Made by a program: the position numbers and the translations under genes | The notes under the pieces: generated by a model | Database searches by the model: none | The model's input: only the letters and a program-made list of their open reading frames with translations | Told to the model about the DNA's origin: nothing | Assembly (NCBI RefSeq): GCF_030651595.1 | Contig: NZ_JAUSCH010000004.1 | Span: forward strand, 9,380 to 73,379 | From: Candidatus Oleimmundimicrobium sp. | Lineage (GTDB): Bacteria; Actinomycetota; Aquicultoria; UBA3085; Oleimmundimicrobiaceae | Reading direction: 5' to 3' | DNA length: 64,000 nucleotides | Shown: piece by piece, positions 1,530-63,240 of the stretch | Position numbering within the stretch: position 1 is the first letter of the stretch | Layout: each line of letters opens with the position of its first letter

Positions 1530-2834
1530 ATGATTGCAAAAATTGATAAAGTAAGAAAAGGTAGTATCGCTGACATGGCCGGAGTTCGAGTCGGCAATAT
1601 TTTAGAGAATATAAATAATATTCCTCTGAGGGATATTATTGATTTTCAAATTTACTCTGACCCTTCAAAGCTTAATCTTAACATCTTACGCAACGGGCAA
1701 AAACTCTGCATTAAAATAGAAAAGGCGGAAGGCGAGCCGCTTGGGGTTAAATTTTCGTCATCAATTTTTGATAAATTAAAATTCTGCAAGAATAGGTGCC
1801 TTTTTTGTTTTATAGACCAACTGCCGCCTCGCGTTAGAAAAAGTTTGCTTATAAAAGATGATGATTATCGACTTTCTTTTTTGTATGGAAACTTTGTTAC
1901 GTTAACAAATTTAAGTGATTCGGAATTGGAAAGAATAATTGAACAGCGCTTAAGCCCGCTTTATGTTTCACTTCATTCTACCGATTTAGCGATTCGTTCT
2001 AAACTAATTAGACCAAGGGCTGGAGATAAGGCCCTTGAATACCTTAAACGTCTCTTAGACGCGGGCATACGTATTCACATACAAATTGTTCTCTGCCCAG
2101 GCATAAATGATGGTGACAACTTAATGCACACCCTTATTGATCTTTCCACTAATTATTCAGGGATTGAATCAGTGGGAATTGTACCGGTCGGGCTTACGTC
2201 TTATAGAGAAAAACTCTATCCATTGCGCTCCTTTACCCCAAATGAAGCTGGTTCGTTAATTGAAGAAATAGAAGTTTTTCAAAAAAAATTTTTAAAGACT
2301 AGGAATTTGTCCCGAGTTTTTCTTGCGGATGAATTTTATTTAATGAGTGGCAAAACTTTGCCCGACAAGGAACATTACGGGGATTTTCCTCAAATTGAAA
2401 ATGGTATTGGTTTAGCCCGCCTTTTTTTAAGCGATTTTGAGGAGGCATTAGCGAAACGCGCCAATGCTCTTAAGCCTTTAACCGGAACCGTGCTAACCGG
2501 AGAGATGCCGGAGTCAATATTAAAAGAGGCGTTTGCCAAACTAAAAAAGTTTAATATTTATTTAAAAGTAAAAAAAGTTCCTAACAAGTTTTTTGGCGGG
2601 GAAGTGAATGTGACCGGGTTGGTTACGGGCTCTGATATTTTAAATACTGCAAAAGATGAAGATTTTGAAGCGCCTCTTTTTTTACCTGATATTATGTTGA
2701 ATGAAGGTAAGTTATTCTTAGATGATATAAATCTCAACGAACTTGAACAAAAATTAAAGGTTCCGATTTGTTTGGTTTCGACCAACGGAAAACAATTTAT
2801 CGAAGATTTAATTAAAGTAAGCAATAGGAGTTGA
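1530..2834 (+). CDS. PDZ domain / DUF512 (radical-SAM-like) protein
   Basis: N-terminal PDZ-like region followed by CxxRCxFCF cysteine cluster typical of DUF512 proteins that sit upstream of der. ORF track starts at a GTG at 1485 that overlaps the ispH stop; the ATG at 1530 is more likely. Confidence 0.6.
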   Translation: MIAKIDKVRKGSIADMAGVRVGNILENINNIPLRDIIDFQIYSDPSKLNLNILRNGQKLCIKIEKAEGEPLGVKFSSSIFDKLKFCKNRCLFCFIDQLPPRVRKSLLIKDDDYRLSFLYGNFVTLTNLSDSELERIIEQRLSPLYVSLHSTDLAIRSKLIRPRAGDKALEYLKRLLDAGIRIHIQIVLCPGINDGDNLMHTLIDLSTNYSGIESVGIVPVGLTSYREKLYPLRSFTPNEAGSLIEEIEVFQKKFLKTRNLSRVFLADEFYLMSGKTLPDKEHYGDFPQIENGIGLARLFLSDFEEALAKRANALKPLTGTVLTGEMPESILKEAFAKLKKFNIYLKVKKVPNKFFGGEVNVTGLVTGSDILNTAKDEDFEAPLFLPDIMLNEGKLFLDDINLNELEQKLKVPICLVSTNGKQFIEDLIKVSNRS

Positions 2835-6264: not shown

Positions 6265-6289
6265 AAACTAAGTTATAGTGAGGTTTGAG

Positions 6290-6718
6290 ATGGAAAAGGA
6301 AAATAAGCTTTATACTCCAAAACAAGTAGCCGAAAAATTAAACCTTAAGCCCACAACCATTCGAGAATGGTGCAAAACAGGGAAAATAGGTCGCATTAAA
6401 TTTGGGAAAGAATACCGTATTTCAGAAAAAGATATAGAGGATTGGATTTCGAAAAGAAAAAAGCAGTTTAAGCCCGATAAAGACCTCTTAGATCGGAATT
6501 TGTTATGTATTATGCTCTATCTTAATTTAAAGGAAAAAGGCGAAAGTTATATCGCAGATTTATATCGCGCCTACAAGGAAGAAAGTACCGCGAAAAGCAT
6601 ATATTATTTAGACGATATACTTGACATATTAAATAAATATGACGAAAAGATGCCGGGATTAACTGATGATGTTTTCAAATTATTGAGAGAAAATGGATTT
6701 TTAAAAACAGAAGATTAG
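6290..6718 (+). CDS. excisionase/MerR-superfamily HTH DNA-binding protein with unknown C-terminal domain
   Basis: N-terminus YTPKQVAEKLNLKPTTIREWCKTGKIGRIKFGKEYRISEKDIEDWI matches the excisionase-family HTH pattern. ORF track starts at GTG 6278; the ATG at 6290 follows a GAGGT RBS. Confidence 0.6.
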   Translation: MEKENKLYTPKQVAEKLNLKPTTIREWCKTGKIGRIKFGKEYRISEKDIEDWISKRKKQFKPDKDLLDRNLLCIMLYLNLKEKGESYIADLYRAYKEESTAKSIYYLDDILDILNKYDEKMPGLTDDVFKLLRENGFLKTED

Positions 6719-6941: not shown

Positions 6942-7018
6942 CGGGGCGTGGCGCAGTTTGGTAGCGCACCAGGCTGGGGGTCTGGTGGCCGCTGGTTCGA
7001 ATCCAGTCGCCCCGACCA
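6942..7018 (+). tRNA. tRNA-Pro (anticodon GGG)
   Basis: Manually folded cloverleaf. Acceptor CGGGGCG/CGCCCCG, D-stem GCGC/GCGC, anticodon stem CCAGG/TCTGG, loop CTGGGGG (anticodon GGG), T-loop TTCGAAT, encoded CCA. Confidence 0.9.
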
Positions 7019-8161: not shown

Positions 8162-9124
8162 ATGATTAAAACTTTAGTATATGTTCCAGGCGAGGGGATA
8201 AAAGAAGGTGTTCCTTTTGGAAACATAAAAGAGTTTGTAGATAAGGATAGTTGTTCTATCTGGGTAGATTTAGAGGAGCCCACAGAAGACAATTTCAAAA
8301 TCCTTGCTGACATATTTAACCTCCATCCGCTTGCTATCGAAGATGCTAAAACGAAGTTCAATCTTCCAAAAATTGATGAGCATGTGGGATATCTTTTCAT
8401 TGTATGGCATGACCTTTTAGGTTCCTCTGGTTTAGATAAAATGGAGACTGCTGAAGTTGATATCTTCTTAGGTAAAAATTTTTTTGTAACAGTTCATGAT
8501 AGAAAGATGAAAAATCTCGACTTGATTTTCGACCACTGCAAACAAGCCCCCGATTTTATGAGCAGGGGAGCAGAATGGGTTTTGCATCACCTGCTTGATG
8601 TGATGGTCGACGGAGACTTCCTTTTGGTCGATAGAATAAGCAACGAGGTTGACGAGCTTGAAGATAGAATATTTGAGGTTCCCACGCAGGAAAATCTCAA
8701 AGAGTTGTTTTTATATAAACGTCAGCTTATCACCATACGTAAAATAGCTGCTCCACAAAGGGAAATAATTAGTGTTTTGTTGAGACACGAAACTTTTATT
8801 GAGAGACATGCTTATATCTATTTTCAAGATGTTGCTGACCATTTGATAAGAATCGTCGATTCTGTTGATACAGCTAGAGATGTTATAAGTGGAGCCATGG
8901 ATATCTATTTAAGCAACGTTTCCAACAGAATGAATGAGGTAATGAAGAAGTTGACTATAGTTGCGACGATTTTTATACCGCTTACTCTAATAACCGGTAT
9001 ATATGGGATGAATTTTAAGAATATGCCTGAGTTATACTGGACGTATGGTTATTTTATTGTTTTGATTGTTATGGTGTCTTTTGTTTTTGGAGTATTCATT
9101 TATTTTAAATCTAAACGGTGGTGA
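8162..9124 (+). CDS. corA: magnesium/cobalt transporter CorA
   Basis: YGMNF (GMN) motif before two C-terminal TM helices; 320 aa. Confidence 0.9.
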   Translation: MIKTLVYVPGEGIKEGVPFGNIKEFVDKDSCSIWVDLEEPTEDNFKILADIFNLHPLAIEDAKTKFNLPKIDEHVGYLFIVWHDLLGSSGLDKMETAEVDIFLGKNFFVTVHDRKMKNLDLIFDHCKQAPDFMSRGAEWVLHHLLDVMVDGDFLLVDRISNEVDELEDRIFEVPTQENLKELFLYKRQLITIRKIAAPQREIISVLLRHETFIERHAYIYFQDVADHLIRIVDSVDTARDVISGAMDIYLSNVSNRMNEVMKKLTIVATIFIPLTLITGIYGMNFKNMPELYWTYGYFIVLIVMVSFVFGVFIYFKSKRW

Positions 9125-9131
9125 TGATTTC

Positions 9132-9644
9132 TTGGGAATTGCGAATATCTTGACGATTATCCGATTAATTTTAATTCCCTTCTTTATCTATTTTTTTCTT
9201 TTAGGTTATAATTATATTGCTCTATTTCTGTTTACCCTGGCTGCGCTCACCGATTGGCTAGATGGTTATTTAGCGAGGGCTTTTTCTCAAGTAACTAGTT
9301 TCGGGAAATTTATCGATCCTCTTTCGGATCGCTTATTAATTATAAGTACCTTGGTTGTGTTAGTGGTAAAGGATTTCTTACCTTTACTTGCCGTGATTAT
9401 AGTAATTTCGAGAGATTTATTTACAATGATTGGTTATCAGTATATGCAATGGCGCGACAAAGAGGTGCCTGTAACTTACCTTGGAAAAACTGCAACTGCA
9501 ATCTTGATGAGCTCGATAATTTTAATAATAGCCGGTGTAAATTTTGGGGTTTTGCTTTTTTACTTTGGAGTTTTTCTATCTGTTGCGTCATTTATAGATT
9601 ACGTTCGAAGAGCAACTTTCGTGTTGAAGTATGAGGAGAGGTGA
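9132..9644 (+). CDS. pgsA: CDP-diacylglycerol--glycerol-3-phosphate 3-phosphatidyltransferase
   Basis: CDP-alcohol phosphatidyltransferase motif DWLDGYLAR...G...D...SD. ORF track start 9066 overlaps corA; the TTG at 9132 just after the corA stop is more likely. Confidence 0.85.
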
Positions 9645-13683: not shown

Positions 13684-14412
13684 ATGCAATTTACAAAATG
13701 GCGCATTTCTCTAATGGTTGGATTTATAGTTTTAGGGATACTTCTTGCAACCTCTTTCTATTCACAACAAAAGTTTAAGGAAACCGGTCCATCATCTAGA
13801 AAAGAGGGGCTTATGGAATCAGTTGAAGCACTGGAAGTAGAACGCGAACGATTAAAGAATGAGTTGTCAAAAACGCGTAAAGAAGTAGAAGATTACGAGA
13901 AGCAAGCCGCTGCCAACGAGGGCATTCTTACGTCTTTTACCCAAGAAAATGAAGAATTAAAAAAAGCGGCCGGATTAACTTATTTGACGGGGACCGGGGT
14001 GGAGATAACTCTTGCGGATAGTTCACAACTTCCTGAGTTTGAAAATCCCAATAACTATATTATCCATGATTATGATTTACGTCTAGCCGTTAACGCGTTA
14101 TTAAGCGGTGAAGCGCGGGGAATTGACGTAAACGGTCAAAGACTCATTTCTACCAGTGCCATTAGGTGTGCGGGAAATACGGTTATGATTAATTCCACTC
14201 GACTCTCGTCTCCCTACAAAATTAAGGCAATTGGGGAACAAGACAGATTACTTAAAGCTCTTCAAGAAGATGAAGGTTTCGCGCAGCTTTTGCAAAGTTA
14301 CGCAAAAGCTTTTGGTTTAATTGTCAAGGTTGATAAAATTTCTGAATTAAGATTACCGTCTTACAAAGGAAGTTTGCATCTTGAATATGCTGAATCTGTG
14401 GGGGAAAAGTAA
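13684..14412 (+). CDS. DUF881 (YlxW/YlxX-like) division/cell-wall cluster protein
   Basis: N-terminal TM helix, coiled-coil and C-terminal DUF881-like region; paired with a second copy flanking an Sbp-like gene. Confidence 0.7.
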   Translation: MQFTKWRISLMVGFIVLGILLATSFYSQQKFKETGPSSRKEGLMESVEALEVERERLKNELSKTRKEVEDYEKQAAANEGILTSFTQENEELKKAAGLTYLTGTGVEITLADSSQLPEFENPNNYIIHDYDLRLAVNALLSGEARGIDVNGQRLISTSAIRCAGNTVMINSTRLSSPYKIKAIGEQDRLLKALQEDEGFAQLLQSYAKAFGLIVKVDKISELRLPSYKGSLHLEYAESVGEK

Positions 14413-14759
14413 TGTTGCCATTAATTGGTTTGTTGATAGGGGTAGCACTTGGTTTAATTTTAAAAATTCCTGTGCCGCCTTCTTATGCCAAATATTTAGG
14501 AGTAGCGACCTTAGCTGCCTTAGATAGCGCGTTTGGCGGAATTAGGGCTAGCTTGGAAAAAGAGTTCAATGACAAACTGTTTATTTCGGGCTTCTTTAGT
14601 AATACCATTCTTGCGGCTTTTATTGTGTATATGGGAGATCGTTTAGGCGTTGAACCTCTTTATTACGCCGCTATCGTAGCTTTCGGTGTTCGCTTGTTTC
14701 AAAATATTGCGGTAATCAGACGTATTATTTTTGAAAGAAAGTATTGGGGACAAGAATGA
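14412..14759 (+). CDS. sbp: small basic membrane protein Sbp (DUF1290)
   Basis: 115-aa membrane protein between two DUF881 genes, the conserved DUF881-sbp-DUF881 arrangement. Confidence 0.6.
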   Translation: MLPLIGLLIGVALGLILKIPVPPSYAKYLGVATLAALDSAFGGIRASLEKEFNDKLFISGFFSNTILAAFIVYMGDRLGVEPLYYAAIVAFGVRLFQNIAVIRRIIFERKYWGQE

Positions 14760-15451
14760 AAGATATTTTTCATGTTTATAATGTTTATGATCGTTTACAG
14801 ACGAAAAGGATGCAGGTTGCTATAGCAGTTATTTTTGCTATCATTGGCATGCTTTTGGTGACCCAGCTTCAAATTCAAAGTGGTATCTCTAAAAAATTGC
14901 AGCAAGAATCTAAACAAGACCTGGGTGAAATTATTAGAGATTTGGATATAGAAGTAAGAGCATTGCAGGAAGAGAGAAGAGATTTAGAAATAAGACTTGT
15001 TAAATATCAGAACGCAACCGAAGACCAGCAATTAATTTTAAATGAAGCAGCTCATAATCTGGAGAATTTAAAGATATTTGCCGGGCTAATAGGGGTTAAA
15101 GGTGAGGGTGTTGAGGTGGTAATCGAAGACAAACAACAATTTTTAGACTGTTATGATCTTATAGATGTTGTCAATGAACTTAAAGCGGGAGGGGCTGAAG
15201 TTCTTTCAATAAACGGAATACGTATTACGGCTAATACAAGTTTTGCTAATGAATCAGGAGGTCAAATTGTTATTGATAAAAAGAAAGTTAGCCCCTCTTT
15301 TATTATTAAAGCAATAGGAAATTCAGAAACGCTTTCTCAGGCCGTTGGTTTATTAGGTGGGATTCAGTATACTTTGACTTCCTACGAAGGGGTGACTTTT
15401 GAGGTTGCAAGGATGGAGAGTTTAGAAATACCGCCAACCGATTTTAATTAA
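14756..15451 (+). CDS. DUF881 protein (second copy)
   Basis: Same architecture as 13684..14412. ORF track starts at 14744; the ATG at 14756 (MKDIFHV) is more likely. Confidence 0.7.
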   Translation: MKDIFHVYNVYDRLQTKRMQVAIAVIFAIIGMLLVTQLQIQSGISKKLQQESKQDLGEIIRDLDIEVRALQEERRDLEIRLVKYQNATEDQQLILNEAAHNLENLKIFAGLIGVKGEGVEVVIEDKQQFLDCYDLIDVVNELKAGGAEVLSINGIRITANTSFANESGGQIVIDKKKVSPSFIIKAIGNSETLSQAVGLLGGIQYTLTSYEGVTFEVARMESLEIPPTDFN

Positions 15452-18574: not shown

Positions 18575-19736
18575 AAAATGCAAGTTTTTAACATTTATCA
18601 AATTTACTGCAGTTATCTTCCTAGCGTTTATTGTTTCTCTTTCTCAGCCATGGCCGGTTTTAGCAAGCGTTGACCCTCTGCAAACTAGCGCTTCTTCAGG
18701 ATTATTAATGGATGCAGAAACAGGACGAGTTCTTTGGGAAAAAGAACCGAATATTAAGCGTTCCGTGGCAAGCACAACCAAGATGATGACGGGTATTGTC
18801 ACCATCGAAAACGCTTCCTTTGATGAAATTATTACAATCAGCTCTTTGGCCGCAGATGTTGGTGAGGCGGAGATTTATCTTTCTCCTGGCGAAAAGAGAT
18901 CCGTTGAAGATCTTTTGTACGGAGTGCTTTTAAAATCGGGTAACGATGCTGCGGCTGCTTTAGCTGAGCATGTTGGAGGAAGCGTCGAAGATTTTGTGAA
19001 AATGATGAACGAAAAGGCCAATAAATTAGGGACAAAAAATACTCACTTTATGAACCCGACAGGCCTAGAACAAGATGGACATTATTCATCGGCCTATGAT
19101 CTTGCGTTAATAGCAAGATATTGCCTGCAAAATGAGAAATTTGCGGAAATTGTATCAACAGAAAAGCACACCATTCCTTGGCCAGATAATCCTTATCCTC
19201 GTGTTTTAACGAATCATAATAAGCTTGTTTTAGAATATGATTACATTAAAGGTGTTAAGACTGGATACACCAAAAAAGCAGGTTATTGTCTCGTAGCTTT
19301 GGCTACGAAGGATGGTAAAAAAGTAATTTCTGTAGTTTTAAATGCACCGACAAGCGAAGACTGTTATACAGATTCCAAGAAAATTTTAGATTATGGACTC
19401 AACGAGTTTGAAATGAGAAAAATTGTGAGAAAGGGAGAATCGGTTGAGTTAATACCGCTTATTGTATGGAAAGATAGATTAAACTTAGTTGCGGATAAAG
19501 ATTTTTATTTACTGACCAAAAAAGAACATCCTGAATTAATTAAAATCATTTCAGTTAAATACCCGAAACTTCCTGTTTCTAAAGGTCAAAAGATTGGAGA
19601 AATACAAATTTTTGATGAACAGCAAGAATTAGGCAAGGTTAGCCTACTGGCTGATAAAAATATTTTCAAAAGTGGTTTTTTAGAGCAATTTCTCGACCAC
19701 ATACAGTCTTTTTTTGAAATTTTATGGAAAAAATAA
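18564..19736 (+). CDS. D-alanyl-D-alanine carboxypeptidase (PBP5-type serine peptidase)
   Basis: SxxK (ASTTKMMT), SGN (KSGNDAA) and KTG (KTGYT) motifs; signal peptide. Confidence 0.85.
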   Translation: MKSKKCKFLTFIKFTAVIFLAFIVSLSQPWPVLASVDPLQTSASSGLLMDAETGRVLWEKEPNIKRSVASTTKMMTGIVTIENASFDEIITISSLAADVGEAEIYLSPGEKRSVEDLLYGVLLKSGNDAAAALAEHVGGSVEDFVKMMNEKANKLGTKNTHFMNPTGLEQDGHYSSAYDLALIARYCLQNEKFAEIVSTEKHTIPWPDNPYPRVLTNHNKLVLEYDYIKGVKTGYTKKAGYCLVALATKDGKKVISVVLNAPTSEDCYTDSKKILDYGLNEFEMRKIVRKGESVELIPLIVWKDRLNLVADKDFYLLTKKEHPELIKIISVKYPKLPVSKGQKIGEIQIFDEQQELGKVSLLADKNIFKSGFLEQFLDHIQSFFEILWKK

Positions 19737-19797
19737 GAAGTAGTTTTTTATAATAAGAAAAATGATATATACTTAGATATAAAGAGAGGTGAGATAG

Positions 19798-20061
19798 TTG
19801 ACCGAGACAAAAGGGTTTTTAAGTCAAGATGACATTCTAATTAATTTGGATAAAAAATCTAACGAAGAATTAAAAGAAATTCTAAGAAAAATAGGCGAAG
19901 AAGAAGAAAAGCTCTCATGTCAAAGAAGGATTTTGCATGGGAAAATAGATATAATTAGAGCTGAATTAGTAGATAGGCTTAAGAAGAACAAGGGCGATGT
20001 CTCCAAGAAAGATATTGACCGTTTGAGTGAGATTCTTGCTAAAGGTGTAAAAGGATTTTAA
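19798..20061 (+). CDS. hypothetical small coiled-coil protein
   Basis: 87-aa ORF (TTG start), first gene of a tightly spaced five-gene cluster; no recognisable family. Confidence 0.4.
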   Translation: MTETKGFLSQDDILINLDKKSNEELKEILRKIGEEEEKLSCQRRILHGKIDIIRAELVDRLKKNKGDVSKKDIDRLSEILAKGVKGF

Positions 20062-20092
20062 GATAAAGAAAAAGTTGAGTGAGGAGGTTTTT

Positions 20093-20317
20093 ATGGCTGA
20101 CAAAGATACTCAAAGAAACGTTCGTTCTAGCACTAAAGAAGCTTTTCTAACTCCAACGCAAAAGCACTTTCATTCCTTGAGCGAAAAAGGAAACGTGTTT
20201 TTTGGCAAACACCAAAACCAGGAGAAGATTGTAAAGAAAGATATCTTAAAAAAATTTAAAGAACGAGAAAAAGGTGTTAAAAAAAGCGAAAAACATGAAG
20301 GGAAAGAGGAAACTTAA
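20093..20317 (+). CDS. hypothetical small lysine-rich protein
   Basis: ATG at 20093 preceded by GAGGAGG RBS (ORF track starts 20075); 74 aa, highly basic C-terminus. Confidence 0.4.
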   Translation: MADKDTQRNVRSSTKEAFLTPTQKHFHSLSEKGNVFFGKHQNQEKIVKKDILKKFKEREKGVKKSEKHEGKEET

Positions 20318-20339
20318 GTAAAAAAGATGAATATTAAGC

Positions 20340-20639
20340 ATGATTGCAAATATATCAGAGGAGGTAGCAAAGTTGCCGGAAAGTAAGTTTTTTGAAGCAG
20401 TAAAAAAAGCGTTTGAAGAGATGAGTTTAAACATTATGGAGGAGAGGGTAATAAATTATGTAGTGAAAGAGCTCCACGCGGGAAGAAATCTCTCCTCAAT
20501 CTTGCAAGATGCTTATGTGAAAAATAGGGTTGATGAAGAAAGGTTAACTCACATTTTGGGAGACCCGGAAATTTTAAGAGCGATTGACGATGAGCTTAAA
20601 AAAGCATTCTTAGAGCAAGATTTCAAATTTAAGGAGTAA
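20340..20639 (+). CDS. hypothetical protein
   Basis: 99-aa ORF; an internal TTG at 20373 follows GAGGAGG and may be the true start; no recognisable family. Confidence 0.4.
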   Translation: MIANISEEVAKLPESKFFEAVKKAFEEMSLNIMEERVINYVVKELHAGRNLSSILQDAYVKNRVDEERLTHILGDPEILRAIDDELKKAFLEQDFKFKE

Positions 20640-20643
20640 AAAA

Positions 20644-21105
20644 GTGTTTTGCAAAAAGTGTGGATATAAAAACAAAGATTTGGATGAATTTTGCCAAAAA
20701 TGTGGCTCTCAATTAAAAGAAAACACAAACCCAGAAAAGACAATATCTTTTAAACCCATTACAGATAAACAAAAAGAAGTTGAGGTGGGGATTAATGAAG
20801 TGCCTGAAGAAGGGGCACTTTTGATAGTTAAAAAAGGTTCAACTGCCGGACAAAAATTTTTGTTGAATAAAGACAAAATCACGATTGGGAGGCATCTTGG
20901 AAGCGATATTTTCTTAGATGATATAACAGTTTCGAGAAAACATGCTGAGATAAATTTTGATTCCGAGGGGGCAATATTAAGAGATATGGGGAGCTTGAAT
21001 GGCACCTATATTAATAATGAGTTGGTAGAAGAAGTCAGATTAAAGAACACCAATGAAATTCAAATTGGAAGATTTAAGCTGGTTTTTTTAACTAAACCAA
21101 GATAG
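20644..21105 (+). CDS. FHA domain protein with N-terminal zinc ribbon
   Basis: CKKCGY...CQKCG zinc-ribbon followed by FHA core (ITIGRHLGSDIFLDDITVSRKHAEI...GSLNGTYINN); GTG start 8 nt after AAGGAG. Confidence 0.8.
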   Translation: MFCKKCGYKNKDLDEFCQKCGSQLKENTNPEKTISFKPITDKQKEVEVGINEVPEEGALLIVKKGSTAGQKFLLNKDKITIGRHLGSDIFLDDITVSRKHAEINFDSEGAILRDMGSLNGTYINNELVEEVRLKNTNEIQIGRFKLVFLTKPR

Positions 21106-21123
21106 TTGGAAGGTGATGATGAA

Positions 21124-21837
21124 GTGTTTAGGTCTTCCGAGAGAGATTATGCAACAATTAGCGAAGTTGTTAAGGAGCTTCGTAAAGATTACCCTGATCT
21201 TTCAATAAGTAAAGTTAGATATTTAGAGGAAGAAGGGTTGATTAAGCCGGAGAGAACCTCGGGCGGTTATAGAAAATTTAAACCAGTGGATGTAGATAAA
21301 CTTCGAACAATATTGCGACTGCAAAAAGACAATTTTCTTCCTTTAAATATAATAAAATCCAAACTTAAGTCGCTTTCGTTTGGCAAAGAAGTTTATTCGG
21401 ATACAGCAGAAAATTTAGCATCATCTTTAGATGAAGAGACTATTTATCAGGAACAAAAAGGGGTAAAAATAGACGATGTTCCCAATATATCTAATTTGTC
21501 TTTTGAGGAAATTAAAAGACTTGAGACATACAATATACTTCAACCCGAAGAAACCGAAGAAGGGAAAGTATATAGCTCCGTTGATGTAAAAATAATGAAA
21601 ATTGTAAAACAATTAGCAGATTTTGGCATAGAACCTCGTCACATACGTTTTTACGAAAATTTTGCCGAGCGAGAAGCTTCTTTTTACCAACAAATTCTCT
21701 TACCCAGTTTTAAGCAAAAAAGTGAGGAAGGTAAAATTAAAGCCATGGAGGAACTTTCTGCTCTTATAAAACTAACACAAGAACTTAAAAATTTACTTTT
21801 ACAAAAGTCCATAAAAAATTATTTTCAAACCTCTTAG
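21124..21837 (+). CDS. MerR family transcriptional regulator (FtsR-like architecture)
   Basis: N-terminal MerR HTH (YATISEVVKEL...SISKVRYLEEEGLIKPERTSGGYRKF) plus ~150-aa C-terminal domain. GTG 21124 preferred over the ORF-track TTG at 21106. Confidence 0.75.
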   Translation: MFRSSERDYATISEVVKELRKDYPDLSISKVRYLEEEGLIKPERTSGGYRKFKPVDVDKLRTILRLQKDNFLPLNIIKSKLKSLSFGKEVYSDTAENLASSLDEETIYQEQKGVKIDDVPNISNLSFEEIKRLETYNILQPEETEEGKVYSSVDVKIMKIVKQLADFGIEPRHIRFYENFAEREASFYQQILLPSFKQKSEEGKIKAMEELSALIKLTQELKNLLLQKSIKNYFQTS

Positions 21838-21857
21838 GTTAAAATTTCTCTAAAAAC

Positions 21858-22337
21858 ATGTTGAAAAATGTGGAAAGACCAAAATTTATCGTTAATCAGA
21901 TGTGCGGCCGTCTTGCTAAATGGTTGCGTTTAATAGGTTATGATGCAGTTTATTTTAGTGATATCGCGGGTCGAGAATTGATAAATATTGCCAAAAAGGA
22001 AAGTCGGATTATCTTAACTCGAGATACGGAATTAATAAAAAGAAGCATCATTGCAAAAGGTATCGTGAAAGCATTAATGGTAAATTCCGACAATTTGGAT
22101 GTTCAGCTTGCTGAATTGATTAAAAGTCTTAAATTAAACTGTTCCCAGAGTCTGAAAAGGTGTATTGAGTGTAATGTTGAGCTTAAACCAATTCCTAAGT
22201 CTGAAGTAAAAAGCGAAGTTCCTCTTCATGTTTATAAAACACAAAATAATTTCAGTGTTTGTCCATTGTGCGGGAGGTATTACTGGAAAGGGACACATTG
22301 GAAACATATTCAGAACAAACTTAAAAATATTTGTTAA
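21858..22337 (+). CDS. Mut7-C/DUF82 PIN-like RNase domain protein with C-terminal zinc ribbon
   Basis: N-terminus FIVNQMCGRLAKWLRLIGYD typical of Mut7-C (COG1656); C-terminal CxxC...CxxC. Confidence 0.7.
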   Translation: MLKNVERPKFIVNQMCGRLAKWLRLIGYDAVYFSDIAGRELINIAKKESRIILTRDTELIKRSIIAKGIVKALMVNSDNLDVQLAELIKSLKLNCSQSLKRCIECNVELKPIPKSEVKSEVPLHVYKTQNNFSVCPLCGRYYWKGTHWKHIQNKLKNIC

Positions 22338-22786
22338 AGAAAATGATGTAATTTAGAGAATATATTCAATACAAAAATATTAACACTCATGATGACAATC
22401 CCGCTTATCATCAGCCAAGAAGAGATGCTGGTCGTATTTTTCTTTTCAAAAAACGATAACCAGCCGATTGTCAGCAAGGTAACAAAATAATAAAACCACA
22501 AGATGACAGAACCTATTTGCTTAACATCCCAACTCCAATAAGCTCCCCACAAATTTTTAGCTTGTATTAGCCCTATGATAAAAGAGGTTGTAAAAAAAAG
22601 AAAGCCAATAATTAAACAGACAAGATTAAGTTTGTACTGTTTTTTTAAAAAAAAATCCTTTGAAGTGGAGTCTGGACTTGTCTTTTTTAAAATTAAATAC
22701 AAACCGCTTCCAAGGCCAGCTATTAATAGACTAATTTGACTCAGTGTCGCAAGGATGTAATGTGCAATGCATTTGTCTAGTGTCAT
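22334..22786 (-). CDS. half-size CcsA/ResC-like cytochrome c assembly (WWD-domain heme-handling) membrane protein
   Basis: Contains the WGAYWSWD tryptophan-rich WWD motif between TM helices, with His near both termini (IAHYIL, LHHFL); only 150 aa vs ~300 for CcsA. Confidence 0.55.
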   Translation of the reverse strand: MTLDKCIAHYILATLSQISLLIAGLGSGLYLILKKTSPDSTSKDFFLKKQYKLNLVCLIIGFLFFTTSFIIGLIQAKNLWGAYWSWDVKQIGSVILWFYYFVTLLTIGWLSFFEKKNTTSISSWLMISGIVIMSVNIFVLNIFSKLHHFL

Positions 22787-26779: not shown

Positions 26780-26880
26780 AAGGATTGCAAGGGGAGCGTT
26801 TGCTGAGAGTTTTTCGTTGTAGTTTGGCGAAAAAGACCCTTTAAACCTGTTTGGATAATACCAGCGAAGGGATGCAGATA
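26780..26880 (+). promoter_or_regulatory. TPP (THI-box) riboswitch aptamer
   Basis: Conserved elements GGGGAGCG...GCTGAGAG...ACCTGTTTGGATAATACCAGCGAAGGGA match the thiamine-pyrophosphate riboswitch consensus; located upstream of thiE. Confidence 0.85.
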
Positions 26881-26895
26881 TTTAATAATGTGTAG

Positions 26896-26934: not shown

Positions 26935-27579
26935 ATGGATTTATCATTTTATGTAATTACCTGTGAAGTGCCCAATTTAAAAAGAAGTCAATTTGAGGTT
27001 GCCAAAGCGGCAACTGAAGGTGGCGCGACGGTTATTCAATATAGAGAAAAAAATAAATCTTCTAGAGAGTTGTTAGAGATGGCTTGTAAGATTCATAAAA
27101 TTACACAAAGAGCAAACATCCCCTTAATAATTAACGATAGGCTCGATATTGCCCAGGCAGTTAAGGCCGAAGGGGTTCATCTTGGACAAGGAGATATTTC
27201 TGTTAAGACTGCTCGTATGATACTTGGGCCAGAGAGCATAATTGGTGTGTCCTGTGGAAATATTGAGGAAGCAATTGAAGCTGAGCGTGATGGAGCATCT
27301 TATATTGGAGTTGGCCCGATTTTCCCGACTTCAACTAAGGATAATGCGCGTAAACCCATAGGGATTAAAGGGCTGATTGAAATCAAAAGAAGCGTTAACG
27401 TTCCGGTGGTAGGTATTGGTGGAATTTCAGTTGATAATGTGGGATCGGTATTAAAGTCAGGAGTGGATGGTGTTGCGGTTATTTCGGCGGTGGCTTTTGC
27501 TTCTAATATGAAAGGAGCCAGTTGTAATTTGTCTAAAAAAATAAAAAAGGTTAGGGAGGCTAATCATGAGTTTAAATGA
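26935..27579 (+). CDS. thiE: thiamine-phosphate synthase
   Basis: ThiE/TMP-TENI family pattern; first gene after the TPP riboswitch. Confidence 0.9.
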
Positions 27580-28339
27580 GGTTACAATCACTAAAGCGAT
27601 AGTTGAAGAATTTTTAAGTGTTTTTATAGAGTATTCTGAGGTCGATGTTGCCCTAGTTGGGGGAGGTCCGGCAAATTTAGTTGCAGCTACTTGTTTGGCC
27701 AAAGAAGGGGTCAAGACAGTTTTGTTTGAGAAAAAGTTATCTGTAGGAGGAGGAATGTGGGGAGGCGGTATGATGTTTCCTCGTATTGTAGTGCAGTCGG
27801 AAGCTTGCAGAATTTTAGATGATTTTGGAATACATTACACCGAATATAAGCCGGGTTATTACATTGCCAGCTCGGTGGAGTCGGTTGGAAAGCTTATAAG
27901 CCGGGCTTGCGATTTTGGAGTTCAAATTTTTAATTTAATGAGTGTTGAGGATGTAGTAATAAGAGAAAATGATGCTATTACCGGCTTGGTGATAAACTGG
28001 ACAGCAGTTGATATGGCCGGTTTGCATGTCGATCCTTTATCGATTTCCGCTAAAGTTGTTATAGATGGGACGGGACACGATGCCGAAGTTTGTCGGGTGA
28101 TTGAAAGAAAAATACCCGGGGTGAAGTTGAACGTTAAGGGCGAAAAACCGATGTGGGCTGATGTGGGTGAAAAAATTCTTTTGGATACAACCAAAGAAGT
28201 TTACCCCGGTCTTATTGTTGCGGGGATGGCAGCCAATGCAGTAGCCGGTGGCCATAGAATGGGGCCAATCTTTGGCGGAATGATGTTGTCCGGAGAAAAA
28301 GCGGCACAAATTGCTTTATCAAAACTGGGAGAGGATTAA
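27566..28339 (+). CDS. thi4: Thi4-family thiazole synthase (archaeal-type, His-containing active site)
   Basis: FAD-binding [22 protein letters not shown] block, and GTGHDAEV at the position of the yeast THI4 suicide Cys. Confidence 0.85.
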
Positions 28340-28340
28340 A

Positions 28341-29636
28341 GTGACCTTAATTAAGAGAATTCAAGCAGGCGAAGTCCCTGAAGTTGTAAAAAACATTGCT
28401 AAAAATGAATTAATCGAGCTCGAAATTTTATTGGAAAGAATTGCCGATGGGAGAGTAGTGATACCCAACAATATCAATCATTCTATTAGCAAGTTTGTTG
28501 GTATTGGCAAAGGTCTTACGACAAAAGTTAATGCCAATATTGGAACATCGGAAGATTATCCTTTTCTTGAAGAAGAGTTAAAAAAATTAGAAGTATCGGT
28601 TGAGGTAGGAACCGATACAGTTATGGACCTCAGCACGGGAGGAAATTTAGATTCAATTCGCAGGGAAATACTGAAAAAGTCAACCGTTCCAATTGGAACG
28701 GTTCCAATTTATCAAGCAGCCGTTGATGCTAAATTTAAACTTGGAAGCATTGTTGAGATGACTAAAGAGCATATTTTTGAAGTTATCAGAAAACAGGCAA
28801 AAGACGGTGTTGATTTTATGACTATCCATTGTGGGGTAACACGCAAAGCCTTAGATGCTTTAAATAAAGATGGTCGAATAATGGATGTGGTGAGTCGTGG
28901 CGGGGCATTTACAATAGGCTGGATTTTGCATAACAACAGGGAAAATCCACTTTATGAAGAATTTGATGAGCTGTTAAATATTGCGAAAGAATACGATATT
29001 ACCTTAAGTCTCGGAGATGGGATGAGGCCCGGTTGTTTAGCTGATGCTACTGACCGTGCGCAAATTCAAGAACTCTTAACGCTTGGGGAATTAGTGGATA
29101 GAGCTCGGGAAGCAGGAGTACAAACGATGGTTGAAGGGCCGGGCCATGTGCCTTTTGACCAAATTGAAATGAATATTAAACTGGAGAAAGAGATATGCAA
29201 AGGTGCTCCATTTTATGTTTTAGGACCCATAGTAACTGATGTTGCGCCGGGATATGATCATATTACTTCGGCAATTGGAGGAACTCTGGCGGCCTCGGCA
29301 GGTGCGGATTTTTTATGTTATGTCACTTCACGTGAGCATCTTGGCCTACCGACAGTTGGAGATGTAAGAGAAGGGGTGGTTGTTTCAAGAATAGCTGCTC
29401 ACGCAGCTGATATTGCAAAAAAGATTCCTGGAGCAAAAGATTGGGATTTGGAAATGGCTAAAGCCAGGCGGCGCTTGGATTGGGAAGAAGAAATAAAGCT
29501 GGCAATTGACCCCGAAAAAGCAAGAGAAGGATATGAGGAAAGAAAAAAGAAAGGTGAAGATGTTTGCACGATGTGCGGAGATTTTTGCGCTTTAAAGGTT
29601 ATTGATGAATATTTAGGAAAAACAAGACAAGGGTAA
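28341..29636 (+). CDS. thiC: phosphomethylpyrimidine synthase
   Basis: Short-form ThiC with C-terminal CTMCGDFCA cluster; GTG 28341 after GGGAGAGG (ORF track TTG 28311). Confidence 0.9.
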   Translation: MTLIKRIQAGEVPEVVKNIAKNELIELEILLERIADGRVVIPNNINHSISKFVGIGKGLTTKVNANIGTSEDYPFLEEELKKLEVSVEVGTDTVMDLSTGGNLDSIRREILKKSTVPIGTVPIYQAAVDAKFKLGSIVEMTKEHIFEVIRKQAKDGVDFMTIHCGVTRKALDALNKDGRIMDVVSRGGAFTIGWILHNNRENPLYEEFDELLNIAKEYDITLSLGDGMRPGCLADATDRAQIQELLTLGELVDRAREAGVQTMVEGPGHVPFDQIEMNIKLEKEICKGAPFYVLGPIVTDVAPGYDHITSAIGGTLAASAGADFLCYVTSREHLGLPTVGDVREGVVVSRIAAHAADIAKKIPGAKDWDLEMAKARRRLDWEEEIKLAIDPEKAREGYEERKKKGEDVCTMCGDFCALKVIDEYLGKTRQG

Positions 29637-62325: not shown

Positions 62326-63240
62326 TTGACATCAATTCCAAAAAATTGGGAGCTTATGAACAAATTAATTGATACTTTTTTACAATATCTTTCCGCAGAA
62401 AGAAATATGTCGAGGCACACGATAAGTGCTTACGAGGCCGATTTAAAACAATTTTTGAGCTATCTACAAAGAGGAGGGCTTTCAATAAAGCAGGTTAATT
62501 ATCTTTCTTTAAGAAAATATTTAGCCTATTTACAAACCTTAGGTTACGCTAGAACAAGTATTGCTCGCAAGCTTACTGCGGTTCGTTCACTTTTTGGGTT
62601 TCTTCAACGAGAGGGTTTGGTACAATCTAATCCGGCACCTTTAATTTCTTATCCAAAACTAAATAAAAAACTTCCTAAGTCACTACGCATGGAAGTAATA
62701 GAGATTCTTTTAAATGCACCTAATAGAAATAAATCTTTTGGGCAAAGGGACAAAGCCTTGTTAGAGATTCTCTATGGAACAGGAGTAAGGGTAAGTGAAC
62801 TGGTTGGGTTAGATGTTGATGATGTTAATTTTAGTCAGCAAGAAATTAGGGTATTTGGTAAAGGAAGAAAAGAAAGAGTGGTTCCCATTAATCAAACAGC
62901 GCTAAACTCTGTCAAATATTATTTATCAAATGGAAGAAAGGAACTTTTAAAAAACAAGGAGAAGAAGGCACTTCTTTTAAATCGGTTAGGAGAGAGATTA
63001 TCGGATGGAGCAGTAAGGCGAATTTTAAAAAAATATGTTAAACAAACTGGGGTTGAAATTGGGATAACTCCTCATGTTTTGCGGCACACGTTTGCAACGC
63101 ATCTTTTAGAATCTGGAGCTGACTTGCGTTCAATTCAAGAGCTTTTGGGTCATGTTGATTTATCATCTACTCAAATTTATACTCAATTAAGCAAAGCTAA
63201 GTTAAAAGAGATTTATTTACAAACTCACCCAAGAGCTTAA
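62326..63240 (+). CDS. xerC: tyrosine recombinase XerC/XerD family
   Basis: Catalytic C-terminus HVLRHTFATHLLESGADLRSIQELLGHVDLSSTQIYTQL (R..H..R...Y). The ATG at 62356 (MNKLIDTFLQYL) is an alternative start. Confidence 0.85.
   Translation: MTSIPKNWELMNKLIDTFLQYLSAERNMSRHTISAYEADLKQFLSYLQRGGLSIKQVNYLSLRKYLAYLQTLGYARTSIARKLTAVRSLFGFLQREGLVQSNPAPLISYPKLNKKLPKSLRMEVIEILLNAPNRNKSFGQRDKALLEILYGTGVRVSELVGLDVDDVNFSQQEIRVFGKGRKERVVPINQTALNSVKYYLSNGRKELLKNKEKKALLLNRLGERLSDGAVRRILKKYVKQTGVEIGITPHVLRHTFATHLLESGADLRSIQELLGHVDLSSTQIYTQLSKAKLKEIYLQTHPRA

Follow-up and report, generated by a model that had tools for sequence, protein, structure and literature searches.

GarA/OdhI and FtsR are central to metabolism and cell division in actinobacteria, and are essential or near-essential where they have been studied. 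The odhI/garA gene always lies directly 5' of ftsR and the region 5' of odhI varies, with the input stimulus of FtsR, and the reason why ftsR always follows garA, named as open questions (PMC6683498). Few effectors of cyclic di-GMP (c-di-GMP) in Actinomycetota are understood structurally; RsiG is among them, and has so far been described only as an anti-sigma factor. Its c-di-GMP signature takes the form E(X)3S(X)2R(X)3[Q/H](X)3D (PMC8325347, PMC7005675). Single-motif RsiG is an antiparallel coiled-coil homodimer which clamps a c-di-GMP dimer and sequesters the sigma factor WhiG, and the RsiG of C. woesei, an H variant, binds c-di-GMP with a dissociation constant (Kd) of 25 µM alone and 1.7 µM with WhiG (PMC8325347). 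Here we describe an operon in a 64-kb window (the whole stretch of DNA that was analysed) from Candidatus Oleimmundimicrobium, a member of the Actinomycetota, class Aquicultoria. The operon is, judging by its sequence, the garA-ftsR operon of this actinobacterium, extended upstream by a predicted c-di-GMP-sensing module. The linkage of the two, present in every related sequence examined, suggests that c-di-GMP signalling feeds into the garA-ftsR module.

The garA-ftsR pair and the RsiG family are already known. A link between RsiG and garA/ftsR, a zinc-ribbon GarA, and the family of small proteins represented by the third gene of the operon are all absent from the literature searched. No paper connecting RsiG with GarA, OdhI, FtsR or Rv1828 was found, the RsiG papers leaving gene context aside, and none among the 12 top-ranked results joined the terms zinc ribbon and GarA/OdhI; most subscription journals lay outside these searches.

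Operon layout and gene assignments

Five co-directional genes, ORF1 to ORF5 (open reading frames, ORFs), were confirmed on the + strand by the ORF listing of the window and by direct reading of positions 19680-22400. An earlier sequence-only reading of this DNA had proposed the same five-gene operon, in which we corrected the starts of ORF3 and ORF5. The features are given below, with lengths in amino acids (aa) and nucleotides (nt) and with ribosome-binding sites (RBS) where present.

19725-19754, + strand: promoter-like site TGGAAA-18-TATAAT from a consensus scan (10/12 matches), in the 61-nt gap between dacB and ORF1
19798-20061, + strand: ORF1, TTG start, 87 aa, RBS AGAGGTGA upstream
20093-20317, + strand: ORF2, ATG start, 74 aa, GAGGAGG 3 nt before the ATG; the mechanical ORF opens at 20075
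20373-20639, + strand: ORF3, TTG start, 88 aa, GAGGAGG 7 nt before the TTG; the mechanical ORF opens at ATG 20340
20644-21105, + strand: ORF4, GTG start, 153 aa, AAGGAG upstream
21124-21837, + strand: ORF5, likely start GTG 21124 after GGAAGGTGA, 237 aa; the frame is open from TTG 21106
21858-22337, + strand: Mut7-C gene, 159 aa, PIN-like RNase plus zinc ribbon (Pfam Mut7-C, 3.6e-46), probable sixth gene of the unit

We placed the ORF3 start at TTG 20373 because GAGGAGG stands just ahead of it and all close homologues are 88 aa long; ATG 20340 has no RBS. The gaps from ORF1 to ORF5 are then 31, 55, 4 and 18 nt, the second being 22 nt if ORF3 is read from ATG 20340. Of the spacings first reported (32, 23, 5 and about 18 nt), the 23-nt gap between ORF2 and ORF3 has therefore to be given up, and the strong RBSs reported with them are present at ORF2 and ORF4 but not at the start of the 99-aa version of ORF3. 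The GTG 21124 start of ORF5 agrees with the start of its orthologue in L002 (related loci are designated by L numbers). Only 20 nt separate ORF5 from the Mut7-C gene, with no terminator-like site between them, and a Mut7-C gene after ftsR is kept in L002-L005, L016, L030, L048 and L073. A nuclease-type gene 3' of ftsR may be a recurring theme, being Mut7-C here and DUF151 in Corynebacterium. At the other end of the unit, the promoter-like site is the only one in the 61-nt gap 5' of ORF1, which is weak evidence; the count of such sites in the region is not above that in shuffled sequence. A riboswitch or other leader RNA ahead of or inside the operon, for example a c-di-GMP riboswitch, was considered and is unsupported, there being no Rfam match in 19500-22400 even at E values up to 1.

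All five ORFs are real genes, with coding-type substitution relative to related genomes. They occur in identical order in L002 and L003, and the substitutions relative to L002 at codon positions 1/2/3 number 18/10/42 in ORF1, 17/17/33 in ORF2 and 14/3/43 in ORF3.

ORF1 is assigned to the RsiG family, as a single-motif member whose c-di-GMP signature is intact. It scores 62.2 bits on the Pfam family PF22802 (RsiG-like; cutoff 27) at an E value of 3.8e-17, and so does not belong with the small proteins lacking a recognisable family, among which it had been counted. Its significant matches to PDB structures (phmmer) are restricted to the RsiG of S. venezuelae (6pfj, 3.7e-8) and that of R. radiotolerans (7lq2, 1.6e-7; also 7lq3 and 7lq4). 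The signature E36-x3-S40-x2-R43-x3-H47-x3-D51, encoded at 19903-19950, is present in a single copy, and its five residues are invariant across 18 homologues. The C-terminal segment RLSEILA, common to Streptomyces RsiG, is invariant in the same 18 proteins. The identity of ORF1 is in itself not new, since UniRef labels an identical protein 'RsiG family protein'. Proteins identical to ORF1 and to ORF3 are on record from a metagenome-assembled genome of Candidatus Oleimmundimicrobium.

ORF4 and ORF5 are the pair that gave the operon its first interpretation: the zinc ribbon, FHA and MerR domains had all been called correctly, and an FHA-MerR adjacency recalling garA(odhI)-ftsR turns out to be that pair itself. 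In ORF4, a zinc ribbon CxxC-x10-CxxC (20650-20703; Pfam Zn_Ribbon_1, 27.9 bits, cutoff 25) precedes an FHA domain at about 20878-21069 (Pfam E 4.4e-20). Among structures this FHA domain is closest to GarA (6i2q, 5.4e-30) and OdhI (2kb3, 5.7e-27), with the next FHA family at 1.3e-10; the GarA/OdhI PDB constructs match ORF4 through the FHA domain only. The phosphothreonine-pocket residues GR, SR+H and SLNGT align with GarA. The best NCBIfam match is OdhI (NF041660), at 131.2 bits, below the equivalog cutoff of 200 because the N terminus of ORF4 consists of the zinc ribbon and then E-K-T33-I-S-F. We classify ORF4, from these comparisons, as a GarA/OdhI-type orthologue or variant and not as an equivalog.

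The threonine motif E31-K-T33-I-S-F36, encoded at 20734-20751, lies N-terminal of the FHA domain and resembles the phospho-acceptor segment of GarA, ETTSVF (ETTS in GarA/OdhI). Because of this resemblance, a GarA-type autoinhibition switch is probably retained in ORF4. Nearly all RsiG-linked FHA genes encode a T-x-x-[F/Y/L] motif behind the zinc ribbon (TISF, TASF, TTATY, TTMTY, TTVGL), and the ribbon itself is found in all of them except that of L063, where the FHA match is split over two ORFs. ORF5, which begins 18 nt after ORF4, is assigned as FtsR, a MerR regulator of the Rv1828 type. It reaches 197.6 bits against NCBIfam TF_FtsR_Actino (NF050798; equivalog cutoff 150) over profile positions 2-222 of 223, and also matches Pfam MerR_1 (3.1e-17) and the C-terminal domain of Rv1828 (PDB 5ydc, 4.8e-5), with PF28507 Rv1828_C on record for an identical protein.

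The two remaining small proteins had been described as lysine-rich (ORF2) and acidic and helical (ORF3), and both descriptions are borne out. The profile searches that had been proposed for the small proteins gave a family for ORF1 but none for these two. ORF3 has an isoelectric point (pI) of 5.1 and is predicted to be all-helical. A first profile search, built on ORF3 and its L005 and L007 relatives, yielded 82 proteins. When 1.84 billion representatives were searched exhaustively with a hidden Markov model, 450 clusters were matched at E<=1e-3, of which 197 at E<=1e-10. The members, nearly all of 80-100 aa, have a near-invariant core EERVxxYVIRExxxGRxLxEILxDPYVRNR (encoded at about 20439-20528 in ORF3). 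ORF3 has no NCBIfam match, no Pfam family is matched consistently by the members, and we found neither a solved relative nor an informative fold match for the family, nor any sequence or profile similarity of ORF3 to sigma factors. ORF3 thus belongs to a family of conserved, unannotated helical proteins of about 85 aa, not found in the literature searched. It is about as conserved as its neighbours: identities across L002/L003/L005/L007 are 80/80/52/35% for ORF3 against 77/70/60/51% for RsiG.

Three candidate relationships of ORF3 were rejected. A 21-residue local match of its core to residues 175-195 of the homoserine dehydrogenase 3ing_A (INYVIRNMANGRSLRDVVDDA; E 0.013) was treated as chance; it overlaps the most conserved ORF3 motif and is probably fortuitous. 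That ORF3 is a diverged RsiG paralogue is ruled out by a hhalign probability of 1.8% between the two MAFFT-aligned families. That ORF3 mimics the c-di-GMP-contacting helix in sigma-2 of WhiG (K57, G61, R62) fails on the mismatched spacing of its conserved Y...GR residues and on its lack of similarity to sigma factors.

ORF2 is rich in lysine (22%; pI 9.8), with a low-complexity Lys-rich C terminus, and has no Pfam or NCBIfam match. Over the first ~55 aa it shares 77-80% identity with its counterparts in L002 and L003/L004, and its N-terminal half contains a conserved Ser/Thr-rich segment, RNVRSSTKEAFxTPTQKHF. The more distant L005-L008 gave no tblastn match to ORF2; in L011, L013 and L015, the RsiG and ORF3 parts are, by the gene tables, too close together for the gene to fit between them. 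Since it is confined to the closest relatives, ORF2 is not a core partner, and may be a lineage-specific accessory.

Linkage and gene fusions in related genomes

In all of the very divergent genomes examined, rsiG, zinc-ribbon garA and ftsR lie side by side in one orientation, and the zinc ribbon on GarA co-occurs with RsiG. The broadest sample came from a scan of JGI metagenomes seeded on the RsiG motif alone ([RQK]RR[IV]LHGKI). More than 600 stretches matched and 583 were confirmed as relatives; 80 independent loci were fetched and searched with the RsiG and ORF3 profiles and with ORF4 and ORF5 as queries. These loci hold 79 distinct RsiG sequences at ~45-60% RsiG identity, with a G+C content (GC) of 0.38-0.76 (median 0.69). 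Where at least 700 nt of downstream sequence were available, the next gene on the same strand was a GarA-like FHA gene without exception (54/54 loci), and wherever the downstream sequence extended to at least 1500 nt (38/38 loci) an FtsR-like gene came after it. Nine of the 54 loci have ORF3 between RsiG and the FHA gene. A conserved linkage of the small ORFs to FHA-MerR pairs, which the sequence-only reading had proposed to look for, is thus found for RsiG throughout and for ORF3 in a subset of loci. The rsiG-zinc-ribbon garA-ftsR unit spans many uncultured lineages as well as lineages with a base composition of the soil-metagenome type.

Exact-protein look-ups of RsiG and ORF3 homologues gave the gene orders of further loci. 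With ZnR-FHA standing for the zinc-ribbon GarA-like FHA gene, the order RsiG-ZnR-FHA-FtsR was also found in the metagenome-assembled genomes of L002, L003, L005, L007, L011, L013 and L097. Representative gene orders are as follows.

L003 (ENA ERZ27245514): RsiG, ORF2, ORF3, ZnR-FHA, FtsR, Mut7-C
L005 (GCA_012974965.1): RsiG, ORF3, ZnR-FHA, FtsR, Mut7-C
L007 (Ca. Aquicultor; GCA_003522005.1): gcvH, RsiG, ORF3, ZnR-FHA, FtsR
L011 and L097 (GCA_900174595.1 and GCA_964354215.1): gcvT, gcvH, gcvP (two genes), lplA, RsiG, ORF3, ZnR-FHA, FtsR
L096 (ENA ERZ25039515): frameshifted RsiG, inserted deacetylase fragment, ORF3, ZnR-FHA, FtsR

The genes 5' of RsiG vary by lineage, being gcvH or lplA, dacB, or proS with a membrane protein. 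Because these upstream genes differ between lineages, the rsiG-garA-ftsR trio is tighter than its surroundings. No sigma gene was present among the called genes of the annotated loci, and none of the scanned ORFs of the 64-kb window encodes a sigma factor, a GGDEF/EAL protein, a Ser/Thr kinase or a PP2C phosphatase; the earlier suggestion to look for kinase and phosphatase genes had, in this window, a negative outcome. Two of the loci call for separate remarks. At L096 8866-9164, on a contig of long-read style, RsiG is split over two frames and a polysaccharide-deacetylase fragment stands before ORF3, reflecting either assembly indels or a decaying rsiG. In L097, a faint GGDEF match at 1870-2682 (- strand) lies ~7 kb upstream of the operon on the opposite strand, and is too weak to be relied on as a source of c-di-GMP.

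ORF3 is, in addition, fused to each of its neighbours in different lineages. The protein P0227 (211 aa) comprises an RsiG part whose H-type motif is intact, joined by a Gly/Pro/Ser-rich linker to an ORF3 domain, and is encoded between gcvH and ZnR-FHA-FtsR. This RsiG::ORF3 fusion was seen on 20 contigs from three sources (NCBI, Logan, JGI), and is therefore not an assembly accident. The protein P0203 (264 aa) joins ORF3 to the zinc ribbon and FHA domain, and its gene lies between RsiG and FtsR. Such fusions to both neighbours are a classic indication that RsiG, ORF3 and the zinc-ribbon FHA protein act together. The small proteins had been put forward as uncharacterised partners of the FHA-MerR module, and for ORF3, tied to it by synteny and fusions, this view stands; it does not for ORF1, a member of a known family, or for ORF2, which is not core.

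At one RsiG::ORF3 fusion locus (L013 7748-10636), PilC-, PilT- and PilB-like genes (T2SSF, T2SSE) lie just downstream on the opposite strand, which may be a coincidence. Type IV pili are under the control of the RsiG-WhiG switch in Rubrobacter (PMC8325347).

Possible partners of the RsiG homologue

By analogy with the RsiG of R. radiotolerans, ORF1 would homodimerise as an antiparallel coiled coil, clamp a dimer of c-di-GMP and in this way capture a partner protein. In the lineages with this gene order, the RsiG dimer may engage zinc-ribbon GarA and/or FtsR; ORF3, in the loci that have it, would serve as adaptor or co-subunit. Two inputs would thus be combined: the c-di-GMP level via RsiG, and Ser/Thr-kinase activity via the phospho-Thr (T33)/FHA autoinhibition switch of GarA. 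The outputs would be those of the actinobacteria studied to date, namely the 2-oxoglutarate/glutamate node for GarA and ftsZ transcription for FtsR. That an RsiG dimer with c-di-GMP captures zinc-ribbon GarA and/or FtsR, and thereby joins c-di-GMP to the Ser/Thr-kinase input, is the explanation we tentatively prefer, and we rate its chances as only slightly short of even.

Several observations weigh against this explanation. The sole documented partner of RsiG proteins is WhiG (PMC7005675, PMC8325347). Of the four polar contacts of the R. radiotolerans RsiG-WhiG complex that can be mapped onto ORF1, three are kept or similar (D39 to N/D, R72 to K, R77 to R) and one is reversed (K60 to E), and since three of four are kept, a sigma partner for ORF1 is still plausible. 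The gene order of the chromosomal region (pgsA, DUF881, sbp, DUF881 ... garA, ftsR) is ancient and very stable, and for this reason adjacency alone could be inherited synteny. The metagenome sample represents the H-type RsiG subfamily retrieved with one peptide pattern, and is silent on Q-type and twin-motif RsiGs. The ORF3::FHA fusion was read on one contig only, 4 kb long. ORF3 is absent from 45 of the 54 metagenome loci with RsiG, garA and ftsR, and members of a distant high-GC branch of its family (L009 5001-5258 and L012 5001-5261) have no RsiG or FHA neighbours. They are flanked on one side by a conserved unannotated gene of 114-118 aa and an MqnD-like gene (VitK2_biosynth), and on the other by an ornithine cyclodeaminase/mu-crystallin gene. 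Given this unrelated neighbourhood, the ORF3 fold has a life outside the garA operon and ORF3 is not obligatory for the role of RsiG.

These points lead to the strongest alternative, that of a canonical anti-sigma factor: the sole task of ORF1 would be to sequester, jointly with c-di-GMP, a sigma-28 factor of the WhiG type whose gene lies elsewhere in the genome, its adjacency to garA-ftsR would reflect inherited order or co-expression, and ORF3 would be unrelated. Flagellated bacteria usually encode a sigma-28 factor. Flagellar gene clusters are reported from 41-91% of the species of the basal classes, Aquicultoria included (PMC10746217), and WhiG is bound by every RsiG characterised to date, those with a single motif in Rubrobacter and Thermoleophilia among them (PMC8325347). 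ORF1 shares RLSEILA with S. venezuelae RsiG in addition to the three mappable WhiG contacts, and the surrounding gene order is, as stated, ancient. An inherited order fits poorly, however, with an adjacency held in 54/54 and 38/38 loci at a GC of 38-76%, tighter than the flanking synteny. Nor does it fit with the co-occurrence of the GarA zinc ribbon with RsiG, or with the RsiG::ORF3 and ORF3::zinc-ribbon-FHA fusions that tie the three products together. A sigma gene is lacking from the scanned ORFs of the window and from the called genes of the annotated loci, and a 2026 preprint reports the partner of RsiG to be WhiG2 and not the flagellar WhiG1 (PMC12871210). We lean against the anti-sigma role as the sole function of ORF1, while regarding it as a serious possibility. 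The two readings are not mutually exclusive: an RsiG that captures zinc-ribbon GarA and/or FtsR could sequester a WhiG-type sigma factor from elsewhere in the genome as well.

A second alternative keeps to the terms of the sequence-only reading, in which the small proteins are partners of a purely Ser/Thr-phosphorylation-dependent FHA-MerR module, for example as FHA substrates or decoys, and no second messenger is involved. In its favour are the GarA-aligned FHA pocket and the N-terminal Thr-x-x-Phe of ORF4, and the conserved Ser/Thr-rich N-terminal half of ORF2. Against it, most related loci lack ORF2, the scanned window ORFs include neither a kinase nor a phosphatase gene, and c-di-GMP binding is the defining property of the family of ORF1, in which all the signature residues are intact. 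As the characterised RsiGs bind c-di-GMP, a probable second-messenger input had been missed, and we consider a phosphorylation-only module improbable. That ORF2 and/or ORF3 are chance open frames in the leaders or spacers of a garA operon, as their short length, the lack of a database family and the low-complexity Lys-rich C terminus of ORF2 might suggest, is already refuted for ORF3 by its 450 homologous clusters, near-invariant motifs and fusions, and is extremely improbable overall, both frames having an excess of third-position substitutions relative to two relatives and a strong RBS each.

A broader proposal can be built on the capture of zinc-ribbon GarA and/or FtsR by RsiG, namely that WhiG is not the sole, and perhaps not the ancestral, partner of RsiG. 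In deep-branching Actinomycetota, a c-di-GMP-loaded dimer of single-motif RsiG would bind zinc-ribbon GarA and/or FtsR, aided by ORF3 in the loci that have it, directly gating the 2-oxoglutarate/glutamate node and ftsZ transcription. We regard this wider proposal as unlikely, though far from negligible. If true, it would supply the long-sought input signal of FtsR, and would explain the later c-di-GMP control of sporulation septation in Streptomyces through a derived RsiG-WhiG pair. The linkage in any event offers a concrete hypothesis joining c-di-GMP, Ser/Thr-kinase signalling, central metabolism and division. If it reflects inherited synteny only, the result reduces to a correct operon annotation and one new small-protein family.

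Genomic setting and comparison with described systems

The window, with a GC of about 36%, is a housekeeping chromosomal stretch. Its 5' part carries, in order, plsC, ispH, der, plsY, gpsA and a pgsA-type gene. These are followed by DUF881, DUF1290 and DUF881 genes, and then by VanW, ACT, YjbQ, DUF3006 and DacB-type carboxypeptidase genes, after which the operon begins. On its 3' side lie, in order, thiamine genes behind a thiamine pyrophosphate (TPP) riboswitch, fakA, degV, recG, plsX, fab genes, rnc, smc, ftsY, ffh, rimM, trmD and dprA. An ftsZ gene was not identified among the annotated window ORFs. The features with defined positions are listed below.

9066-9644: pgsA-type gene
13684-15451: DUF881-DUF1290 (small basic protein)-DUF881 triplet, 3' of the pgsA-type gene
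26780-26889: TPP riboswitch (Rfam RF00059, 64.7 bits), preceding thiE-, thi4- and thiC-like genes (26935-29636)

The succession pgsA, DUF881, DUF1290, DUF881 ... garA, ftsR is the order of M. tuberculosis Rv1822-Rv1828, in which the triplet lies 5' of gcvH-garA-Rv1828. Here gcvH is not found between the triplet and garA, and the VanW, ACT, YjbQ, DUF3006 and DacB genes stand in its place. Elsewhere in the window, a tRNA-Pro(GGG) gene (6942-7018) adjoins a small HTH_17 gene of the excisionase type (6278-6718), and at the far end dprA is followed by a XerC/D-type integrase gene (62326-63240). We saw no sign of a mobile element around the operon.

The described proteins closest to ORF1 are the single-motif RsiGs of R. 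radiotolerans, RradSPS_1442, and of C. woesei, Cwoe_3492, which like ORF1 have ~85-105 aa, one signature copy on a long helix and an origin in a deep-branching actinobacterial class; the C. woesei protein also shares with it the H variant of the motif (PMC8325347). The published partner of these proteins is WhiG, the main text of that paper is silent on genomic context, and its survey of 673 genomes has Aquicultoria outside it. Unlike the single-motif RsiGs as published, ORF1 heads a garA-ftsR operon in which ORF3 also precedes garA, and has homologues naturally fused to ORF3; at the position of the WhiG-contacting K60 of R. radiotolerans RsiG, it has a charge-reversed residue, E37. The twin-motif RsiG (AmfC) of S. 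venezuelae (PMC7005675; 6pfj) is homologous to ORF1 in its first motif helix and the following RLSEILA segment. The crystallised construct of that protein, however, is a monomer of 176 aa that has two motifs and a loop wrapping the c-di-GMP, whereas ORF1 has one motif and no such loop.

The other half of the operon corresponds to the odhI/garA-ftsR operon of Corynebacterium and Mycobacterium (PMC6683498). In both cases the FHA gene lies directly 5' of FtsR, co-directional with it and with short spacers, the threonine motif is N-terminal to the FHA domain, pgsA and the DUF881-DUF1290-DUF881 triplet are in the neighbourhood, and a nuclease-type gene follows ftsR. The Corynebacterium cluster consists of odhI, ftsR, a DUF151 nuclease gene and a second MerR gene (PMC6683498), whereas here Mut7-C follows ftsR and there is no second MerR gene. 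ORF4 differs from GarA/OdhI in the added N-terminal CxxC..CxxC zinc ribbon and in a score below the OdhI equivalog cutoff. Finally, the region 5' of odhI, described in PMC6683498 only as variable, is occupied in this actinobacterium by the genes for the RsiG homologue, ORF2 and ORF3.

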